Assembly: GCA_037147115.1 (NCBI GenBank)
Contig: JBAWVV010000001.1
Location: 1 to 46,291, forward strand
Direction: 5' to 3'
Source: Planctomycetia bacterium
GTDB taxonomy: Bacteria; Planctomycetota; Planctomycetia; Pirellulales; UBA1268
DNA: 46,291 bases
Below are positions 5,421-10,995 of the stretch, in pieces. The notes beneath the pieces are model-generated. The model was not told the DNA's origin, made no database searches, and saw only the letters and a list, made by a program, of their open reading frames with translations. The position numbers were made by a program, and so were the translations under genes. Numbering within the stretch: the first letter of the stretch is position 1; every line of letters starts with the position of its first letter.

Positions 5421-7823
5421 TCAATCCACGATCGGCTCGAGGGCACCGTGGGAGAAGATGAAGCGTCGCGTACCGGCGGGGCCATCAAAGATCACCGTCA
5501 CGACGGACCGTACGCCCGCGCCACTCACTCCGGCGGTCGTTCCCTCGCCATACTCAGCGTGCCTGACCCTCTGGCCGGTAGCCAAGGGGGCCTGGGCTTG
5601 CCGACCGCTGGTCCGTCTCGCGAGTTCGGCGGCAGTCTCTAATTTGGGGGGCATGGGGCGGTCCGTCCTCAAACCGGCCCTGGAGCTGGATCGCCCCGGT
5701 GGCGGAGGCAGATCATCTTCGGTCTCGAGCACGAGTCCGTCGTCCCTGATGGGCCTCGGCGGGGAGCCCTGGCGGGGCGCCGTCCATCCCTGTTCCTCCT
5801 CCCAGGCATCGGGAGGAAGCTGGGATTCGTCATCCTCGCGGGGTCGGCGCCCCCCCAAGCCCCCGGCCGGCGGGGCTTCGGTGCCCGTCACCTCCGCACC
5901 GGGGCCTGACATCTCTGCGAGGAACAGGCTGGGGCAGCCGATTCGCCGGGCCCCGCGGTAGTCGCGCATCCGGGCACAGCTGGCATGAACCTGCTCCATG
6001 CCACGGGTGATCCCCACGAACACGAGGCGCCGTTCCTCTTCGAGCTGGTCGGGCTGATCGAGGCTGCGTTGGTGGGGAAGAATCCCATCCTCCATGGCCA
6101 CGAGGTAGACCACCGGGAATTCGAGTCCCTTGGCGGCATGAAACGTCATCAGCGAGACCCGATCGGCGGAGGGGTCCCAGGCATCGGTGTCGGCCACCAG
6201 GGCGGTGGTGTCGAGGAACGCGCCGAGCGGGGATTCGTCGATCCCGCGGGACTGTTCATCCGAGGCATATCCGGAATCGAATTGTCGGGCAGCTGTGATC
6301 AGTTCCTCTACGTTCGCGAGCCGGTCGTCTCCCTCCTCGTCCTCGTCGTCGGCGAGCATGGCGCGATAGCCGGTCTGCTCGAGCACCGCTTCGAGGATCC
6401 CGGCCACCGAGGGATCGCCGGCCGCCACGCCCGCGAGCGTGGCATGGAGCGCGGCAAACCGACCGATCGACGTGGCAGCCCGGGCCGGGAGACCGGTCAC
6501 GGACTTCGCCCGTCGGCAGGCGGCGAGGAGTGGCACGGCATGATCGGTCGCCCAAGCCGAGAGGAGATCGAGCGACAGCCGCCCGATGCCCCGTGCGGGC
6601 ACGTTGACGACTCGGAGGAGCGCTTCGTCATCACGCGGATTCCGCAGCAATCGCAGCCAGGCGATGATGTCACGGATCTCGCGTCGCTTGAAGAACTCGA
6701 CCCCGCGGAGCAGTTGGTAGGGGACGCCGCGGGAACGGAGTGCGACCTCCAGGGAGCGGGAGAGGGCGTTGGTGCGGAAGAGGATCGCGAAATCCCGTGG
6801 TGAACGCCCAGACCGCGCGACCGCCGCGGCAATCTCGTCGGCAATCCGGTCGGCCTCCTCTCGCCCTTCTGCGTCGAGGACGATGCGCACGGGTACACCG
6901 TCGGGGGCATCGGTGAGGAGCTGTTTCGGCTTACGGCGCGTGTTGTGGCCGATGAGACGGTCGGCCGTGCCGAGGATGTTCGCCGTGCTTCGGTAATTGT
7001 GCTCGAGCTTCACGACGCTCGCGGTCGGGTAGTCGCGTTCGAACTCGAGGATGTTGCGGATGCTCGCGCCGCGCCACCCGTAGATCGCCTGATCGGGATC
7101 GCCGGTCACCGAGAGATTCGGGTGATCGATCGACAGGCCCCGGAGGATCGCATACTGGGCAGCATTCGTGTCCTGGTACTCGTCGACGAGGATCCAGCGG
7201 TGACGGGCGTCGAGTTGGCTGCGGAGTTCGGGGTTGTCGATGATCAACCGCGCCACATGAACGAGCAGGTCATCGAAGTCGACGGCATTGCATTCGAGCA
7301 TCATCTGTTGATAGACCGGCCAGAGTTTCACGGCGACCTCGTCGGCCGGCCGGCCCCAGCGTGCTTCGAAGGTTTCCGGAGTGAGGAGGTCGTTCTTGGC
7401 GCGGCTGATGATCCCTGCGAGACGGTCGACTGGAGTGTGGGTGAGGTTCAGGCCGAGTCGCTTCGCCGCCCGCTTCATCACCGCCCCGGAGTCATCGGTG
7501 TCGAGAATCGAGTAGTCGCTGGTCAACCCGACCATCCTGGCGTGGGTCCGGAGCAACCGGGCCGCGAAACGGTGGAACGTCCCCATCTCGACCGGCTGCG
7601 GGCCGACGAGCGACGTCACCCGGCGGCGCATCTCGTCGGCGGCCTTGTTGGTGAACGACAGGGCCACGATGGTGTGGGCCGGTATCCCCTGCAAGATGAG
7701 GTGGGCGATCCGGTGGGTGACGACACGCGTCTTGCCGCTGCCCGGCCCCGCAAGCACCAAGAGTGGGCCGTCCATGTGAGTGGCTGCCCGACGCTGGGAT
7801 GCATTGAGGCTGTCGAGTTGCAT
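5421..7823 (-). CDS. uvrD: ATP-dependent DNA helicase UvrD/PcrA family with a long low-complexity linker and C-terminal Tudor-like domain
   Basis: 800 aa. SF1 helicase motifs present: LAGPGSGKTRV, ILVDEYQDTN, TFHAAKGLEFPVVYL, VGITRGMEQV. The C-terminal GQRVRHAEYGEGT...VTVIFD resembles the UvrD/PcrA C-terminal domain. Confidence 0.9.
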   Translation of the reverse strand: MQLDSLNASQRRAATHMDGPLLVLAGPGSGKTRVVTHRIAHLILQGIPAHTIVALSFTNKAADEMRRRVTSLVGPQPVEMGTFHRFAARLLRTHARMVGLTSDYSILDTDDSGAVMKRAAKRLGLNLTHTPVDRLAGIISRAKNDLLTPETFEARWGRPADEVAVKLWPVYQQMMLECNAVDFDDLLVHVARLIIDNPELRSQLDARHRWILVDEYQDTNAAQYAILRGLSIDHPNLSVTGDPDQAIYGWRGASIRNILEFERDYPTASVVKLEHNYRSTANILGTADRLIGHNTRRKPKQLLTDAPDGVPVRIVLDAEGREEADRIADEIAAAVARSGRSPRDFAILFRTNALSRSLEVALRSRGVPYQLLRGVEFFKRREIRDIIAWLRLLRNPRDDEALLRVVNVPARGIGRLSLDLLSAWATDHAVPLLAACRRAKSVTGLPARAATSIGRFAALHATLAGVAAGDPSVAGILEAVLEQTGYRAMLADDEDEEGDDRLANVEELITAARQFDSGYASDEQSRGIDESPLGAFLDTTALVADTDAWDPSADRVSLMTFHAAKGLEFPVVYLVAMEDGILPHQRSLDQPDQLEEERRLVFVGITRGMEQVHASCARMRDYRGARRIGCPSLFLAEMSGPGAEVTGTEAPPAGGLGGRRPREDDESQLPPDAWEEEQGWTAPRQGSPPRPIRDDGLVLETEDDLPPPPGRSSSRAGLRTDRPMPPKLETAAELARRTSGRQAQAPLATGQRVRHAEYGEGTTAGVSGAGVRSVVTVIFDGPAGTRRFIFSHGALEPIVD

Positions 7824-8176
7824 GCGGTCGTCCTGCCTGCCACCGGGTGGATGAATCCCGGAAGTCTGCGGGGTCTGGGAAGATCTGCGTCGATGCCCGC
7901 CGGGTGGTAGTCGGAATCGCGCGATCCCGAGTATATTTCCTCCCCGTTGGAAGACGGTGCCATCAAATCATGGAACGGTTCATCGACGGGGCGGGGTGAC
8001 ACTCGGGCCGACTCGATCAGAGCACGACGTGATCGTGGACAGACTTGACGCTTGGATTTCATATCGGAACAGGGATGTCCGATGGAGTCCCGTCACGCAA
8101 GCTTCCGATTCCCGGCTATCCCCGGGACATCGAGCCCCTGGGCCGGGAAACCGGTCCGCCGCACGGGAGGGAACCC

Positions 8177-8491
8177 ATGCCACGCGTTCCGTACAGGAAT
8201 ATGACGCAGTCGGACGAAATGGCGGAGAAGCTCGACATGAGCACCGCCGAGATCGGACTCTCGGTTCGGACGACGAATTGCCTCGAGGAGAAGGGCATCT
8301 TCACGGTGCACGACCTCCTCAAGTGCACGCGTGCCGACCTCCTCGGAATCTCCAATTTCGGCGAGAAGACGCTCGAAGAGGTCTATCGAGCCCTCGAGAA
8401 AATCGGATTTTACCGCTCGGCCCAGCCGTCGTCCGCGCAGTCCACAGCGCTGGGGACGAACGGTCCGGCAGGTGCCGAAGGGCACTCCTGA
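8177..8491 (+). CDS. Stand-alone RNA polymerase alpha-subunit C-terminal-domain (alpha-CTD, helix-hairpin-helix) protein
   Basis: The ATG at 8177 is preceded by GGGAGG (8165-8170). The core LSVRTTNCLEEKGIFTVHDLLKCTRADLLGISNFGEKTLEEVYRALEKIGF matches the RpoA CTD fold signature. There is no N-terminal dimerisation domain. Codon third positions upstream of 8177 (ORF-track start 8045) look non-coding. Confidence 0.7.
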   Translation: MPRVPYRNMTQSDEMAEKLDMSTAEIGLSVRTTNCLEEKGIFTVHDLLKCTRADLLGISNFGEKTLEEVYRALEKIGFYRSAQPSSAQSTALGTNGPAGAEGHS

Positions 8492-8567
8492 AGTCCGGTC
8501 GAACGATCCGGAGCATCGGGCAGGGCGGGGTGAACCGCGGGCCGGGGCACGTTCGGGATGGCCGGTC

Positions 8568-9650
8568 ATGAGACTTCCGCGGTTCTTCACGAAAAAGCGG
8601 GGCCATCGGAGAACCGACTCCCAAGCCTGGGGGTCGTTTGCCGAAGGGCTTTTTTATGCGTTGCTGGTCGGTGCCGGGGTCGTCTTCGGACTGCTCCTGG
8701 TGACCGGTGCGGTGACCTACGCGCCTGCCGATCCCGACTCGGTCGTGCTCCAGCGGGGCTACGAATGGTGGATGTGGCTGCTGACGCTGCTGATGCCCGT
8801 GGCGCTGCTGGCTTTTGGTGGGTCTGGTCTCGTTCGCGTCGTGCGAACGTGGGGAAAATCCCAGGAATACCGTGCCGCGGCGTCACGAGCGGTGATCCTC
8901 GAGGGACTTGCCGGTCCGTCGGCGGGGGCGGCAGGTCGTCCGGCGATCCCGTCGTGCGACAACCTCGAGAACTCTCCCGGCATCGTCCTTCGCTACCGAC
9001 TCCCTCTGGAGAGTCCTGAGAACTGGTCGTTGGTCGGGTTTGGATTGTTCGCGCTCCTGTGGAACGCTGTCGTCGTCGTGCTTGCCGTCGGCGTTGGGGC
9101 TGATCTCATCGGCGGCACGACCGATTGGTTGCTGATCGGTCTCCTCGTGCCGTTTGTCGTCGTCGGTGTGGGTGGGGTGGCGCTGTTCGTCAGATCGGTC
9201 GTGCTCTCCACGTCGGTGGGGCCGACGCACGTGGAGATCTCCGATCACCCGCTCGTCCCAGGCAGGCGGTATGACATCCGGCTCGGCCAGGGGGGCGCGC
9301 ACCTTTTCCGATCGATCGATCTCGCGCTCGAATTGGAGGAGACGGCGACATTCCGTCAGGGTACCGATACGAGAACCGAGCGGATCGTCGTGAGGCGAGT
9401 CACCGTCTCGGGGTGGCAACGCGTCCAACCGGTGCCCGGCGGGATCTTCGAAGCGCGCGTGCCGTTGACGATCCCGGCCGATGCGATGCACTCCTTCTCG
9501 AGCGAGAACAACGCCGTTCAATGGCGGATCGTGGTCCGTGCGCAGCCTGACCGGTGGCCAGAATTCATCCGTGTTTTTCCCGTTGTGGTGCTCCCCGTCA
9601 CAGCGCCAGGCGCCGGGGCCGTCCCCGAATCAGTGGAGGCAATGGGATGA
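8568..9650 (+). CDS. Four-TM membrane protein with a C-terminal arrestin-N/Spo0M-like beta-sandwich domain (hypothetical)
   Basis: The ATG at 8568 gives MRLPRFFTKKRGH followed by hydrophobic helices (FYALLVGAGVVFGLLLV; WWMWLLTLLMPVALLAF; LVGFGLFALLWNAVVVVLAV; LLIGLLVPFVVVGVGGVALFV). The C-terminal ~140 aa are beta-rich and end in the motif IPADAMHSFSSENNAVQWRIVVRA. The ORF-track N-terminus (8331-8567) overlaps the preceding gene and is Arg/Ser-rich junk. Confidence 0.6.
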   Translation: MRLPRFFTKKRGHRRTDSQAWGSFAEGLFYALLVGAGVVFGLLLVTGAVTYAPADPDSVVLQRGYEWWMWLLTLLMPVALLAFGGSGLVRVVRTWGKSQEYRAAASRAVILEGLAGPSAGAAGRPAIPSCDNLENSPGIVLRYRLPLESPENWSLVGFGLFALLWNAVVVVLAVGVGADLIGGTTDWLLIGLLVPFVVVGVGGVALFVRSVVLSTSVGPTHVEISDHPLVPGRRYDIRLGQGGAHLFRSIDLALELEETATFRQGTDTRTERIVVRRVTVSGWQRVQPVPGGIFEARVPLTIPADAMHSFSSENNAVQWRIVVRAQPDRWPEFIRVFPVVVLPVTAPGAGAVPESVEAMG

Positions 9651-10090
9651 ACGCTGCCGATAGCCACGGGGGAAGCGCCCATGGTCCCGCTGGTTCAACG
9701 CCGTTCCCGCGCATGGAGCTCCGCTTCAGTCATCCGGGCCGGAGGTACGAGCCGGGAGAATGGGTCACAGCCGAGTACACCATCGACGGCCTCAACGGAG
9801 AGCGGCCCCGCGCATTGGAACGTTCCGCCCTGTGGTACACCGAGGGCAAGGGGGAGGAGGATCTCGGTGTCCATTTCTTCGAACGCTTCTCGACGCCCGA
9901 GACCATCGATCGCGTCGTGCCAGAGGGCATCTTCGCCCTCCAACTGCCGCCGAGCCCACTGTCCTATGAAGGGGTGATCGTGAAGATCCGCTGGTGCATC
10001 CGCCTGCGAATCTTCTTCGAGTCGGGACGCGACCATGTCTCGGAGCATGTGTTCACCGTCGGCCGCGTTCCTCCATCGATCCTGCCGTGA
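9647..10090 (+). CDS. Small soluble arrestin-N/Spo0M-like beta-sandwich protein (hypothetical)
   Basis: The ATG at 9647 overlaps the upstream stop (ATGA, 9647-9650), with GGAGG at 9635-9639. Contains YEPGEWVTAEYTI ... LPPSPLSYEGVIVKIRWCIRLRI, which fits the arrestin-type PxSF...G.I.Y/W.h.h pattern. Confidence 0.55.
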   Translation: MNAADSHGGSAHGPAGSTPFPRMELRFSHPGRRYEPGEWVTAEYTIDGLNGERPRALERSALWYTEGKGEEDLGVHFFERFSTPETIDRVVPEGIFALQLPPSPLSYEGVIVKIRWCIRLRIFFESGRDHVSEHVFTVGRVPPSILP

Positions 10091-10112
10091 GCCATCCTCG
10101 GGACGTCGCGCC

Positions 10113-10739
10113 ATGGATGTCGGACAGACGATTCACCGTCCCAATCCATTCGCCACGCGATACGTCGCGTCGGCCCGTCTTCTGCCACGGGACGAGCAGG
10201 GCGGGATTCTCAATCTCGCGTCGCTCGTCGCCAGGCTTGATGCGCTCGGAGGATCGGGGGCGATCGTCGGTCCGCACGGGACGGGGAAGTCGACCGTACT
10301 CTCCCATCTGGGCGACTTCATCGCGACCGGGAAACGGCCCGTGGACAGGGTCAGGCTGCGGAGCCGGCGCGACATTCCCGCCGCCGTCCGCTCGGTCCGC
10401 GATGCTTCCCGGGACGGGCTGCTCTGCATCGACAGTTGGGAGCTCCTCGGATTTGCCGGCCGGGCCGTCGTCCGCGGTCTGGCCAGGATCCGCGGAGTCG
10501 GCCTGTTGGTCACATCCCACGGTCCGGCGGGCCTGCCGACACTGATTTCCTGCCGGGGCACCAGAGCACTCCTTGGGGCACTGGTCGGCGAGCTCCCCGA
10601 CCATGACGAGTGGTTCGGCAGGACGATCGTCGCCGCCGATCTGGATGCGGCGCTCGGCGCGTCCAACGGGGACGTGCGGCAGGCCCTCGACCGGCTCTAC
10701 GACCGCTTCGAACGGGGCCGGCTGCGGATGCCGCACTGA
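10113..10739 (+). CDS. Small P-loop NTPase (AAA-like), function unknown
   Basis: ATG at 10113, 208 aa. Walker A is IVGPHGTGKST and the Walker B-like motif is GLLCIDSWE. It lies 22 nt downstream of the previous gene. Confidence 0.6.
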   Translation: MDVGQTIHRPNPFATRYVASARLLPRDEQGGILNLASLVARLDALGGSGAIVGPHGTGKSTVLSHLGDFIATGKRPVDRVRLRSRRDIPAAVRSVRDASRDGLLCIDSWELLGFAGRAVVRGLARIRGVGLLVTSHGPAGLPTLISCRGTRALLGALVGELPDHDEWFGRTIVAADLDAALGASNGDVRQALDRLYDRFERGRLRMPH

Positions 10740-10995
10740 AGGGGCTCCCGGGGGTTTTCCGTCGGGTGGCCCTCCGCAGAAGCGCCGGCGCCGGTCGGTC
10801 GTACCGATCGTGCGATTGGTGACGGTTGTGCGGTGACCGCCGCTGAAATTTACGTTTTTACTCCCGAAATAAATTGCCCAGCCCCCCGGGTCGGCAACCT
10901 ACGCTAGACAGGATCGTGGAGGTGGCCATGCCCGTGCTGGCCAGCCGCTGCGGCGAATGGTGGGATGGCATTCGGGCGATTCCGAGGAGTGTGTC

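Follow-up and report, generated by a model that had tools for sequence, protein, structure and literature searches.

The window analysed here is the whole of a 46,291-nucleotide (nt) stretch of DNA from a Planctomycetia bacterium (GTDB lineage Planctomycetota; Planctomycetia; Pirellulales; UBA1268), namely positions 1 to 46,291 of contig JBAWVV010000001.1 in assembly GCA_037147115.1. The subject of this analysis is a row of four open reading frames (ORFs) in it, designated P1 to P4, which lie on the same (+) strand with intergenic gaps of 76, −4, and 22 nt. An earlier note, made from the DNA letters alone, took these genes for one self-contained system without a name, consisting of a free C-terminal domain of the RNA polymerase alpha subunit (alpha-CTD), a membrane-anchored and a soluble arrestin-like protein, and a small P-loop NTPase. 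The four genes, their coordinates and gaps, the 353-nt region shared divergently with uvrD, and the Walker motifs of P4 all hold on rechecking (Table 1). The locus is nevertheless made up of two evolutionary units rather than one: uvrD with the divergent P1 (unit A) and the trio of P2, P3, and P4 (unit B). Unit B may be a membrane-anchored split arrestin with a small NTPase, a reading to which we assign a probability of about 0.5.

Table 1. Positions in the window of the genes and features discussed (aa, amino acids; TM, transmembrane).
Feature	Position	Strand	Description
uvrD	5421..7823	-	800 aa; ORF; divergent neighbor and conserved partner of P1, outside the trio
uvrD/P1 divergent intergenic region	7824..8176	.	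353 nt (uvrD start 7823, P1 start 8177)
P1, stand-alone RNA polymerase alpha-CTD protein	8177..8491	+	104 aa; PF03118
P2, predicted 4-TM membrane protein of DUF3592-containing family	8568..9650	+	360 aa
P2 TM3-TM4 hairpin (predicted), residues 150-217	9015..9218	+	Common to single-chain arrestin relatives (P2 profile alignment)
P2 C-terminal arrestin-like beta-sandwich (predicted), residues 219-345	9222..9602	+	Foldseek; homology to fused relatives
P3, predicted soluble arrestin-like protein	9647..10090	+	147 aa; domain residues 22-138
P4, putative minimal AAA+-like P-loop NTPase	10113..10739	+	208 aa
P4 motif NPF (residues 11-13)	10143-10151	+	Invariant, N-terminal
P4 Walker A GPHGTGKST (residues 53-61)	10269-10295	+
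P4 Walker B LLCIDSWE (residues 103-110)	10419-10442	+
P4 lid motif GDxR..LYD	10668-10688	+

The AlphaFold2 model of P2 consists of four helices (residues 17-50, 66-94, 150-181, and 187-217) followed by a C-terminal beta-sandwich. When this C-terminal domain is compared with the PDB using Foldseek, its best match is the N-lobe of ARRDC3 (E 7.5e-9), with Spo0M at 1.4e-8, and its target-normalised template modelling score (TM-score, from Foldseek) against the N-domain of TXNIP is as high as 0.72. P3 is modelled as a seven-strand sandwich with a predicted local distance difference test (pLDDT) score of 85.9, and it matches the ARRDC3 N-lobe (E 1.5e-6), Spo0M (5.5e-6), and also TXNIP-N, VPS26, and beta-arrestins. 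Both lobes are predicted to have the arrestin-type beta-sandwich fold by this measure, their top Foldseek matches being structures of the arrestin clan with E values from 1e-9 to 1e-4. A long beta-hairpin is also present in each lobe, and the residues at its tip are invariant (WYTEGKGEED for P3, FRQGTDTRTE for P2).

In sequence searches, P2 and P3 of this genome have no arrestin-clan match in Pfam at E values up to 1 and do not reach the scores of Arrestin_N or Arrestin_C, and a PDB sequence search with P3 returned noise only. Among 18 orthologues of P3, four match Arrestin_N, with a best E value of 0.0037 that is below the cut-off. The sub-threshold Pfam matches of these orthologues are to Arrestin_N, Vps26, Arrestin_C, and Spo0M, apart from two single stray matches outside the clan. 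The Spo0M family itself (PF07070) is matched by neither P2 nor P3 and by one of the 18 P3 orthologues at E 0.29, such that the likeness to Spo0M is a structural one only.

The connection by sequence comes from single-chain relatives, which were sought in genomes that have a P3 match but no P4. In an even sample of 301 genomes of the phylum, the P3 profile finds a match in 47 genomes, the P4 profile in 27, and both in 25. Thirteen of the 47 P3-positive genomes contain a single ORF of ~330–410 aa in which a P3-like lobe, a TM hairpin, and a P2-like lobe follow one another. One of them is a 370-aa protein of GCA_016745075.1 (locus L149, 4001-5113). In three such proteins that were scanned, the first 130 aa are matched by the P3 profile (domain E 1e-15 to 2e-10), and the terminal domain matches the C-domain of P2 (domain E 3e-23 to 3e-10); between these lobes lie a linker and two hydrophobic helices that align to TM3-TM4 of P2. 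Two of the three pass Arrestin_N (PF00339; cut-off 24.9 bits), scoring 52.9 and 45.1 bits. In two of the three, the C-terminal lobe can be aligned with Arrestin_C (PF02752), below the cut-off; one protein reaches the whole-protein score for Arrestin_C, with its best stretch on the N-lobe. The precomputed Pfam annotation of one fused protein lists both PF00339 and PF02752.

Because these fusions contain both a P3-like and a P2-like lobe, they link P3 and the C-domain of P2 to the arrestin clan by sequence, and they support the assignment of P3 as the putative counterpart of the arrestin N-lobe and of the P2 C-domain as that of the C-lobe. The fusions also show both predicted lobes on the same side of the membrane, beside the TM hairpin. 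The arrestin-like character that the earlier note gave to P2 and P3 is thus borne out by the models and their Foldseek matches, with backing in sequence from the single-chain relatives that pass Arrestin_N. Its description of the two as paralogous fares less well: paralogy between P3 and the P2 C-domain was tried as an explanation and set aside since neither BLASTP (E 0.4) nor hhalign (E 0.23) gives a significant match, and the two are better read as different lobes of an arrestin. As a separate observation, two genomes, G080 and G166, have tandemly duplicated fused arrestin genes (locus L125, 4536-5561 and 5641-6444 on the minus strand; locus L137, 2345-5594 on the minus strand).

Unit B holds together over a wide range of genomes. 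In 22 order-level loci and eight loci from distant families, P2, P3, and P4 lie side by side with their order preserved, with three exceptions: P4 lies 3.4 kb away in G033 and on another contig in G279, and the P2 locus of G026 (L017) has no P3 or P4 match. In one sister family, P4 stands beside P3 in G247 and G263 and elsewhere in the genome in G083, G213, G279, G340, and G295. The genes around the trio differ in far lineages, where BrkB-like, CYTH, GFO/IDH oxidoreductase, hydantoinase, amino-acid kinase, and GH123 genes are found. P2 is present in all 41 sampled genomes of the order, with identities that fall from 98% to 33% with taxonomic distance. A relative of P3 was found in 559 species genomes, and all of the best 80 named species loci have P2 and P3, and 76 of the 80 have P4. 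These 80 loci, as the best of the scan, apparently all come from Pirellulales-type metagenome-assembled genomes, and several of their organism labels are evidently wrong. Overlaps of 4 nt of the ATGA type recur at both junctions of the trio; adjacency with such overlaps was counted in eight far-lineage and nine order-level loci with differing flanking genes. In the window, the stop codon of P2 (9648-9650) overlaps the ATG of P3 (9647-9649) in this manner, with GGAGG at 9635-9639, 8 nt upstream, an arrangement from which P3 is predicted to be translationally coupled to P2. The adjacency of the trio is more than chance. A literature search found no paper describing a membrane-embedded or split bacterial arrestin or its NTPase partner, and the earlier idea of a self-contained, unnamed system is supported with respect to these three genes.

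The third member of the trio, P4, is probably an AAA+-like NTPase. Columns invariant in its family are N11, P12, and F13 near the N terminus, G53, G56, G58, and K59 in the P-loop, D107, H136, and R189. The corresponding motifs are GPHGxGKS, D107 with an acidic residue at +3, the sensor-1-like T134-x-H136, and GDxR189..LYD. The P4 profile aligns weakly with small subunits of RFC (RFC2) over residues 47-194 (E ~5e-5). When 18 P4 orthologues were each scanned alone against Pfam at E values up to 0.1, AAA_16 was matched by all 18, nSTAND5 by 14, and NACHT by 13. These matches, together with that to RFC, bear out the P-loop NTPase assignment of the earlier note; a PDB sequence search with P4 itself gave P-loop-only or noise matches. 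The family comprises 3,533 clusters at 50% identity, and the best 150 are all stand-alone proteins of 155–302 aa.

A related NTPase accompanies the single-chain arrestins. In five fused-type loci, a P-loop gene of ~200 aa abuts the arrestin gene upstream on the same strand. The encoded proteins share the motifs RxNPFG, GxxGxGKT, LDExQ, GTH, and GDDxR..LY, and their profile aligns with that of P4 with an hhalign probability of 98.8% (E 1.2e-16); a PDB search with this profile found nothing. The NTPase and the arrestin are therefore paired in two gene orders, P2-P3-P4 in the split form and NTPase followed by arrestin in some fused forms, which favors a functional link between them. The possibility that P4 serves only to reassemble a split arrestin is ruled out by these same five loci, in which a P4 homologue lies immediately upstream of an arrestin that is already a single chain.

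P1, in turn, is a stand-alone alpha-CTD. It passes the RNA_pol_A_CTD model (PF03118) with E 1.2e-19 and 70.2 bits against a cut-off of 23.8, and its core aligns fully with solved alpha-CTD chains in the PDB (E 2.4e-12); the earlier assignment as an alpha-CTD therefore stands. Of the 298-position rpoA model TIGR02027, only positions 224-293 are matched (61 bits against a cut-off of 227.8), and P1 is not an RpoA protein with both N-terminal domain (NTD) and CTD. The true rpoA, which encodes 326 aa including the NTD, is on another contig of this genome. P1 retains what we take to be the DNA-contact residues, the equivalents of Escherichia coli R265, N268, G296, and K298 (within LSVRTTNCL and NFGEKT). 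Another contig of the same genome (C2; locus L151, 1878-3221, minus strand) encodes a 447-aa protein with tetratricopeptide repeat (TPR)-like repeats and two tandem C-terminal alpha-CTD domains, and similar double-CTD frames occur in other genomes of the order. The lineage thus has at least three alpha-CTD-bearing proteins: rpoA, P1, and the 447-aa TPR protein.

P1 is confined to the order Pirellulales, and no P1 orthologue is found in far lineages that carry the trio. Within the order, it keeps to uvrD: of the 78 named loci with P1, 74 have uvrD divergent from it, as do all ten order-level loci with P1, including four in which P1 is unlinked from the trio. These four represent as many other families of the order. 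The P1 orthologue of G035 is found 10 kb off, on the far side of the trio, and those of G038, G033, and G025 are on a contig other than that of the trio; in each, it is still divergent from uvrD. Because separation from the trio does not part P1 from uvrD, we regard it as a conserved partner of uvrD and, with respect to the trio, as a syntenic neighbor outside the core of the module. Since UvrD has a known action on RNA polymerase, the pairing of uvrD with a free alpha-CTD raises a separate question.

How unit B might work can be outlined from its topology. Lys and Arg are abundant in the N-tail of P2 and in its TM2-TM3 loop, its TM3-TM4 loop is acidic, and neither P3 nor P4 has a signal peptide. 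From these features, we infer that both lobes and P4 are placed in the cytoplasm. With both of its ends cytoplasmic, P2 would present its C-lobe to P3 at the inner face of the cytoplasmic membrane, and the tethered P2 lobe and the free P3 lobe would rebuild a two-lobed, arrestin-like clamp. This clamp could be an adaptor for a putative client, probably a membrane protein. P4 would most likely be a nucleotide switch comparable to AAA+ proteins of the clamp-loader or ORC type, as it appears too small and simple for an unfoldase; it might dock by way of the invariant NPF segment at its N terminus and control either clamp assembly or client binding.

An input from outside the cell may be part of this scheme in other genera. 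Homologues of P2 with 430–460 aa carry a DUF3592 domain (PF12158) as an insert of ~85 aa between TM1 and TM2, and P2 orthologues in other families pass PF12158 with 44–58 bits against a cut-off of 25.3. To our knowledge, no function has been assigned to DUF3592; in the longer homologues, where it is predicted to be periplasmic, it probably supplies the outside input. P2 of this genome has no PF12158 match, and its alignment shows a deletion of ~85 aa at the corresponding place with only the last strand remaining. The domain has been lost in this genus and two sister genera, which makes it dispensable for the core. Other arrangements were also seen: some planctomycete P2 homologues of ~590–610 aa have the TM-DUF3592-TM module twice (L131, 2425-4197, minus strand; L134, 1674-3500, plus strand; also L145 and L148), and those of L140 and L141 lack it, having an N-terminal part without assignment ahead of the TM hairpin and C-lobe, and P3 is a separate protein there.

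Several observations weigh against the picture of a split arrestin driven by an NTPase. The AlphaFold2 models are of single chains, P2 and P3 only, and that of P2 is of moderate quality (pLDDT 67), with C-domain blocks at ~75–90. Both P3 and the C-lobe of P2 match N-lobe crystal structures of arrestins best, so the distinction between N- and C-lobe comes from the fused relatives alone. For P4, the proposed AAA+ fold is drawn from sequence profiles, and the protein encoded here passes no Pfam cut-off, the closest being AAA_25 with 26.0 bits against 27. No P4-like gene was found by either profile in four genomes with the fused form (G089, G080, G074, and G210) or in two with the split pair (G339 and G325), genomes that are 87–100% complete and in most of which all candidates were scored. 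The NTPase is not obligatory for the arrestin. Finally, the separation of P1 from the trio is not apparent among close relatives: P1 lies on the same strand directly upstream of P2 in all 78 named loci with enough upstream sequence, and P1 and the trio are possibly cotranscribed and functionally linked locally in this family.

This last observation speaks for treating all four genes as one system, in which the free alpha-CTD would be the output or target, for example where RNA polymerase or binding to UP elements is modulated, or sequestered, under control from the membrane. The gap of 76 nt between P1 and P2 and the conservation of P1 as an alpha-CTD (100% identical in two congeners, in which P2 is 96–98% identical) point the same way. 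A search for intrinsic terminators between the genes P1 to P4 found no convincing one, and a consensus scan for promoters of the sigma-70 type, with other promoter types outside its scope, found none between these genes or in the 353-nt region; GGGAGG stands 5 nt before the ATG of P1. In the close relatives, however, the whole block uvrD-P1-P2-P3-P4-P5-polX is syntenic, with all seven genes present in 57 of the 80 loci, and the adjacency of P1 and P2 there is therefore not specific evidence. Most other families of the order have an opposite-strand gene between P1 and P2, which we read as a probable PQQ-like beta-propeller (410–540 aa, divergently upstream of P2; L014, 3986-5341, minus strand; also L015, L020, L021, and L026). 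This gene is missing at that place in this genus, and it is owing to its loss that P1 is next to P2 here. Along with the four families in which P1 has left the trio but not uvrD and the far lineages in which the trio occurs without P1, this makes the four-gene system unlikely. Co-conservation holds for P2, P3, and P4, which remain together across distant lineages; it does not extend to the alpha-CTD, and with P1 outside the module, nothing points to an RNA polymerase-modulating role for the trio.

The other explanations concern the trio itself. Its layout of a small membrane protein with an NTPase, the weak NACHT and nSTAND5 matches of P4 orthologues, and its patchy distribution in the phylum (47/301 genomes) would suit an anti-phage or abortive-infection module, with the STAND/AAA+-like NTPase as sensor and the membrane protein as effector. 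In PADLOC-DB, however, the only match is that of P1 to an alpha-CTD-like segment of PglW (E 1.3e-5), P4 giving noise and P2 and P3 nothing, and the trio has no nuclease, protease, or pore-forming domain. It is also single-copy in 41/41 genomes of the order within a stable syntenic block, and its identity falls with taxonomic distance, as is typical of housekeeping genes with vertical inheritance and not of a mobile defense island. We therefore reject the defense reading as very improbable; the universal, single-copy, and syntenic occurrence of the trio across Pirellulales suggests a housekeeping function at the membrane instead. A role in DNA repair, with P4 as a DNA-handling AAA+ protein of the RFC, ORC, or DnaC type acting with uvrD, polX, and an alpha-CTD that is a helix-hairpin-helix domain, is suggested by the flanking positions of uvrD and polX across the order and by RFC small subunits being the best full-length PDB matches of the P4 profile. 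Yet that match is weak and reflects the general AAA+ core, the flanking genes in far lineages are unrelated to DNA repair, and the fused gene of G089 sits between secA and pyrB. The uvrD-polX context is thus order-specific synteny, and a repair function on this basis is rejected as highly unlikely. There is equally little to recommend the view that P2, P3, and P4 form no complex and are adjacent through inherited gene order only. P4 is indeed unlinked in some genomes and absent in others, but the genes remain adjacent, with 4-nt overlaps, in lineages where every flanking gene is different, the P3-like and P2-like parts also occur naturally fused as a single chain, and the NTPase occurs beside arrestin genes in two orders.

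Two features downstream of the trio were also observed. An AT-rich stretch, AAATTTACGTTTTTACTCCCGAAATAAATT, lies at 10840-10885 within the 217-nt gap after P4, in a region that is otherwise 65–70% GC, and may be the end of the trio transcript or the promoter of the next gene. That gene, directly 3′ of P4 (10957-12279), encodes a secreted protein rich in Cys, Pro, Ala, and Gln. It has the same place in eight order-level loci and most of the 80 named loci and is not found there in distant lineages; it belongs to the synteny block of the order and not to the trio.

The arrestin fold is best known from animal receptor signaling, and Planctomycetota are known for their unusual membrane organization. 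The wider proposal, that planctomycetes possess a true membrane-integrated arrestin, split in Pirellulales between a tethered C-lobe and a free N-lobe, whose binding to membrane-protein clients is cycled by an AAA+-like NTPase of its own, is speculative, and we consider it possible but doubtful. If it is correct, eukaryotic cargo adaptors of the arrestin and Vps26 types would have a counterpart in bacteria in these proteins, and the two might be related. The literature searched treats arrestin-fold adaptors as a eukaryotic tool for membrane receptors and cargo, and the sole bacterial branch discussed is soluble Spo0M, the prokaryotic arrestin-clan family described by Alvarez 2008 (PMC2515105). 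Here, bacterial proteins pass the eukaryote-derived Arrestin_N model, have an Arrestin_C match, appear to be built into the membrane through a TM hairpin, and are repeatedly partnered by an NTPase; in one order, the putative arrestin is split into two apparently translationally coupled genes in every genome sampled. What is new in this analysis is the single-chain relatives with a TM hairpin, their arrestin identity at the level of Pfam, and the assignment of lobes that they suggest, as well as the NTPase homologue beside fused forms, the retention of P1 with uvrD, and the loss of DUF3592 in this genus. The operon picture is corrected in that the free alpha-CTD partners uvrD and not the trio. 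With the locus, the role of an arrestin in a bacterium could be studied in a genetically simple system, and the split and fused forms offer a natural pair for studying how lobes cooperate; it is also one piece of information on how the arrestin clan arose.

Overall, the locus combines features of several known families. P1 is like the alpha-CTD of RpoA in passing PF03118, but has no alpha-NTD, and hence would not assemble into RNA polymerase, and its gene is conserved beside uvrD. P2 resembles membrane proteins of the DUF3592 family in that its longer homologues carry this domain between TM1 and TM2, but that family is defined without the arrestin lobe and the second TM pair, both of which P2 has, and P2 of this genome is without the domain. 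P4 shares Walker A, Walker B, and a sensor-1-like TH motif with RFC small subunits, ORC/Cdc6, AAA_16, and STAND NTPases, and has a GDxR motif similar to RFC sensor 2 in its C-terminal helical region. It differs from AAA+ switch ATPases in having ~200 aa with no extra domains, an invariant N-terminal NPF, no score at the Pfam gathering level, and no link to DNA found in its wider gene context.

The closest bacterial comparison for the lobes is Spo0M of Bacillus subtilis (PF07070; PDB 5cl2), an arrestin-like beta-sandwich that ranks second or third in Foldseek for P2 and P3. Spo0M, however, is soluble and single-chain, with no TM segment and no NTPase partner, and P3 orthologues match Arrestin_N and Vps26 more strongly. 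With eukaryotic arrestins (ARRDC3, TXNIP/VDUP-1, ARRD-6, beta-arrestins, and Vps26), P2 and P3 share the predicted beta-sandwich of the lobes, the single-chain planctomycete relatives share the layout of an N-lobe and a C-lobe, and action at the cytoplasmic face of the membrane would be expected of the planctomycete proteins too. The differences lie in how these parts are put together. No PPxY, clathrin, or AP2 motif was noticed in the planctomycete proteins, with no search directed at such motifs. Here, the two lobes are on two polypeptides, one of them predicted to be permanently tethered, and in the fused relatives, a TM hairpin replaces the short hinge between lobes. Whereas eukaryotic arrestins have a ubiquitin ligase or a coat protein as partner, that of the planctomycete proteins is probably a small AAA+-like NTPase.

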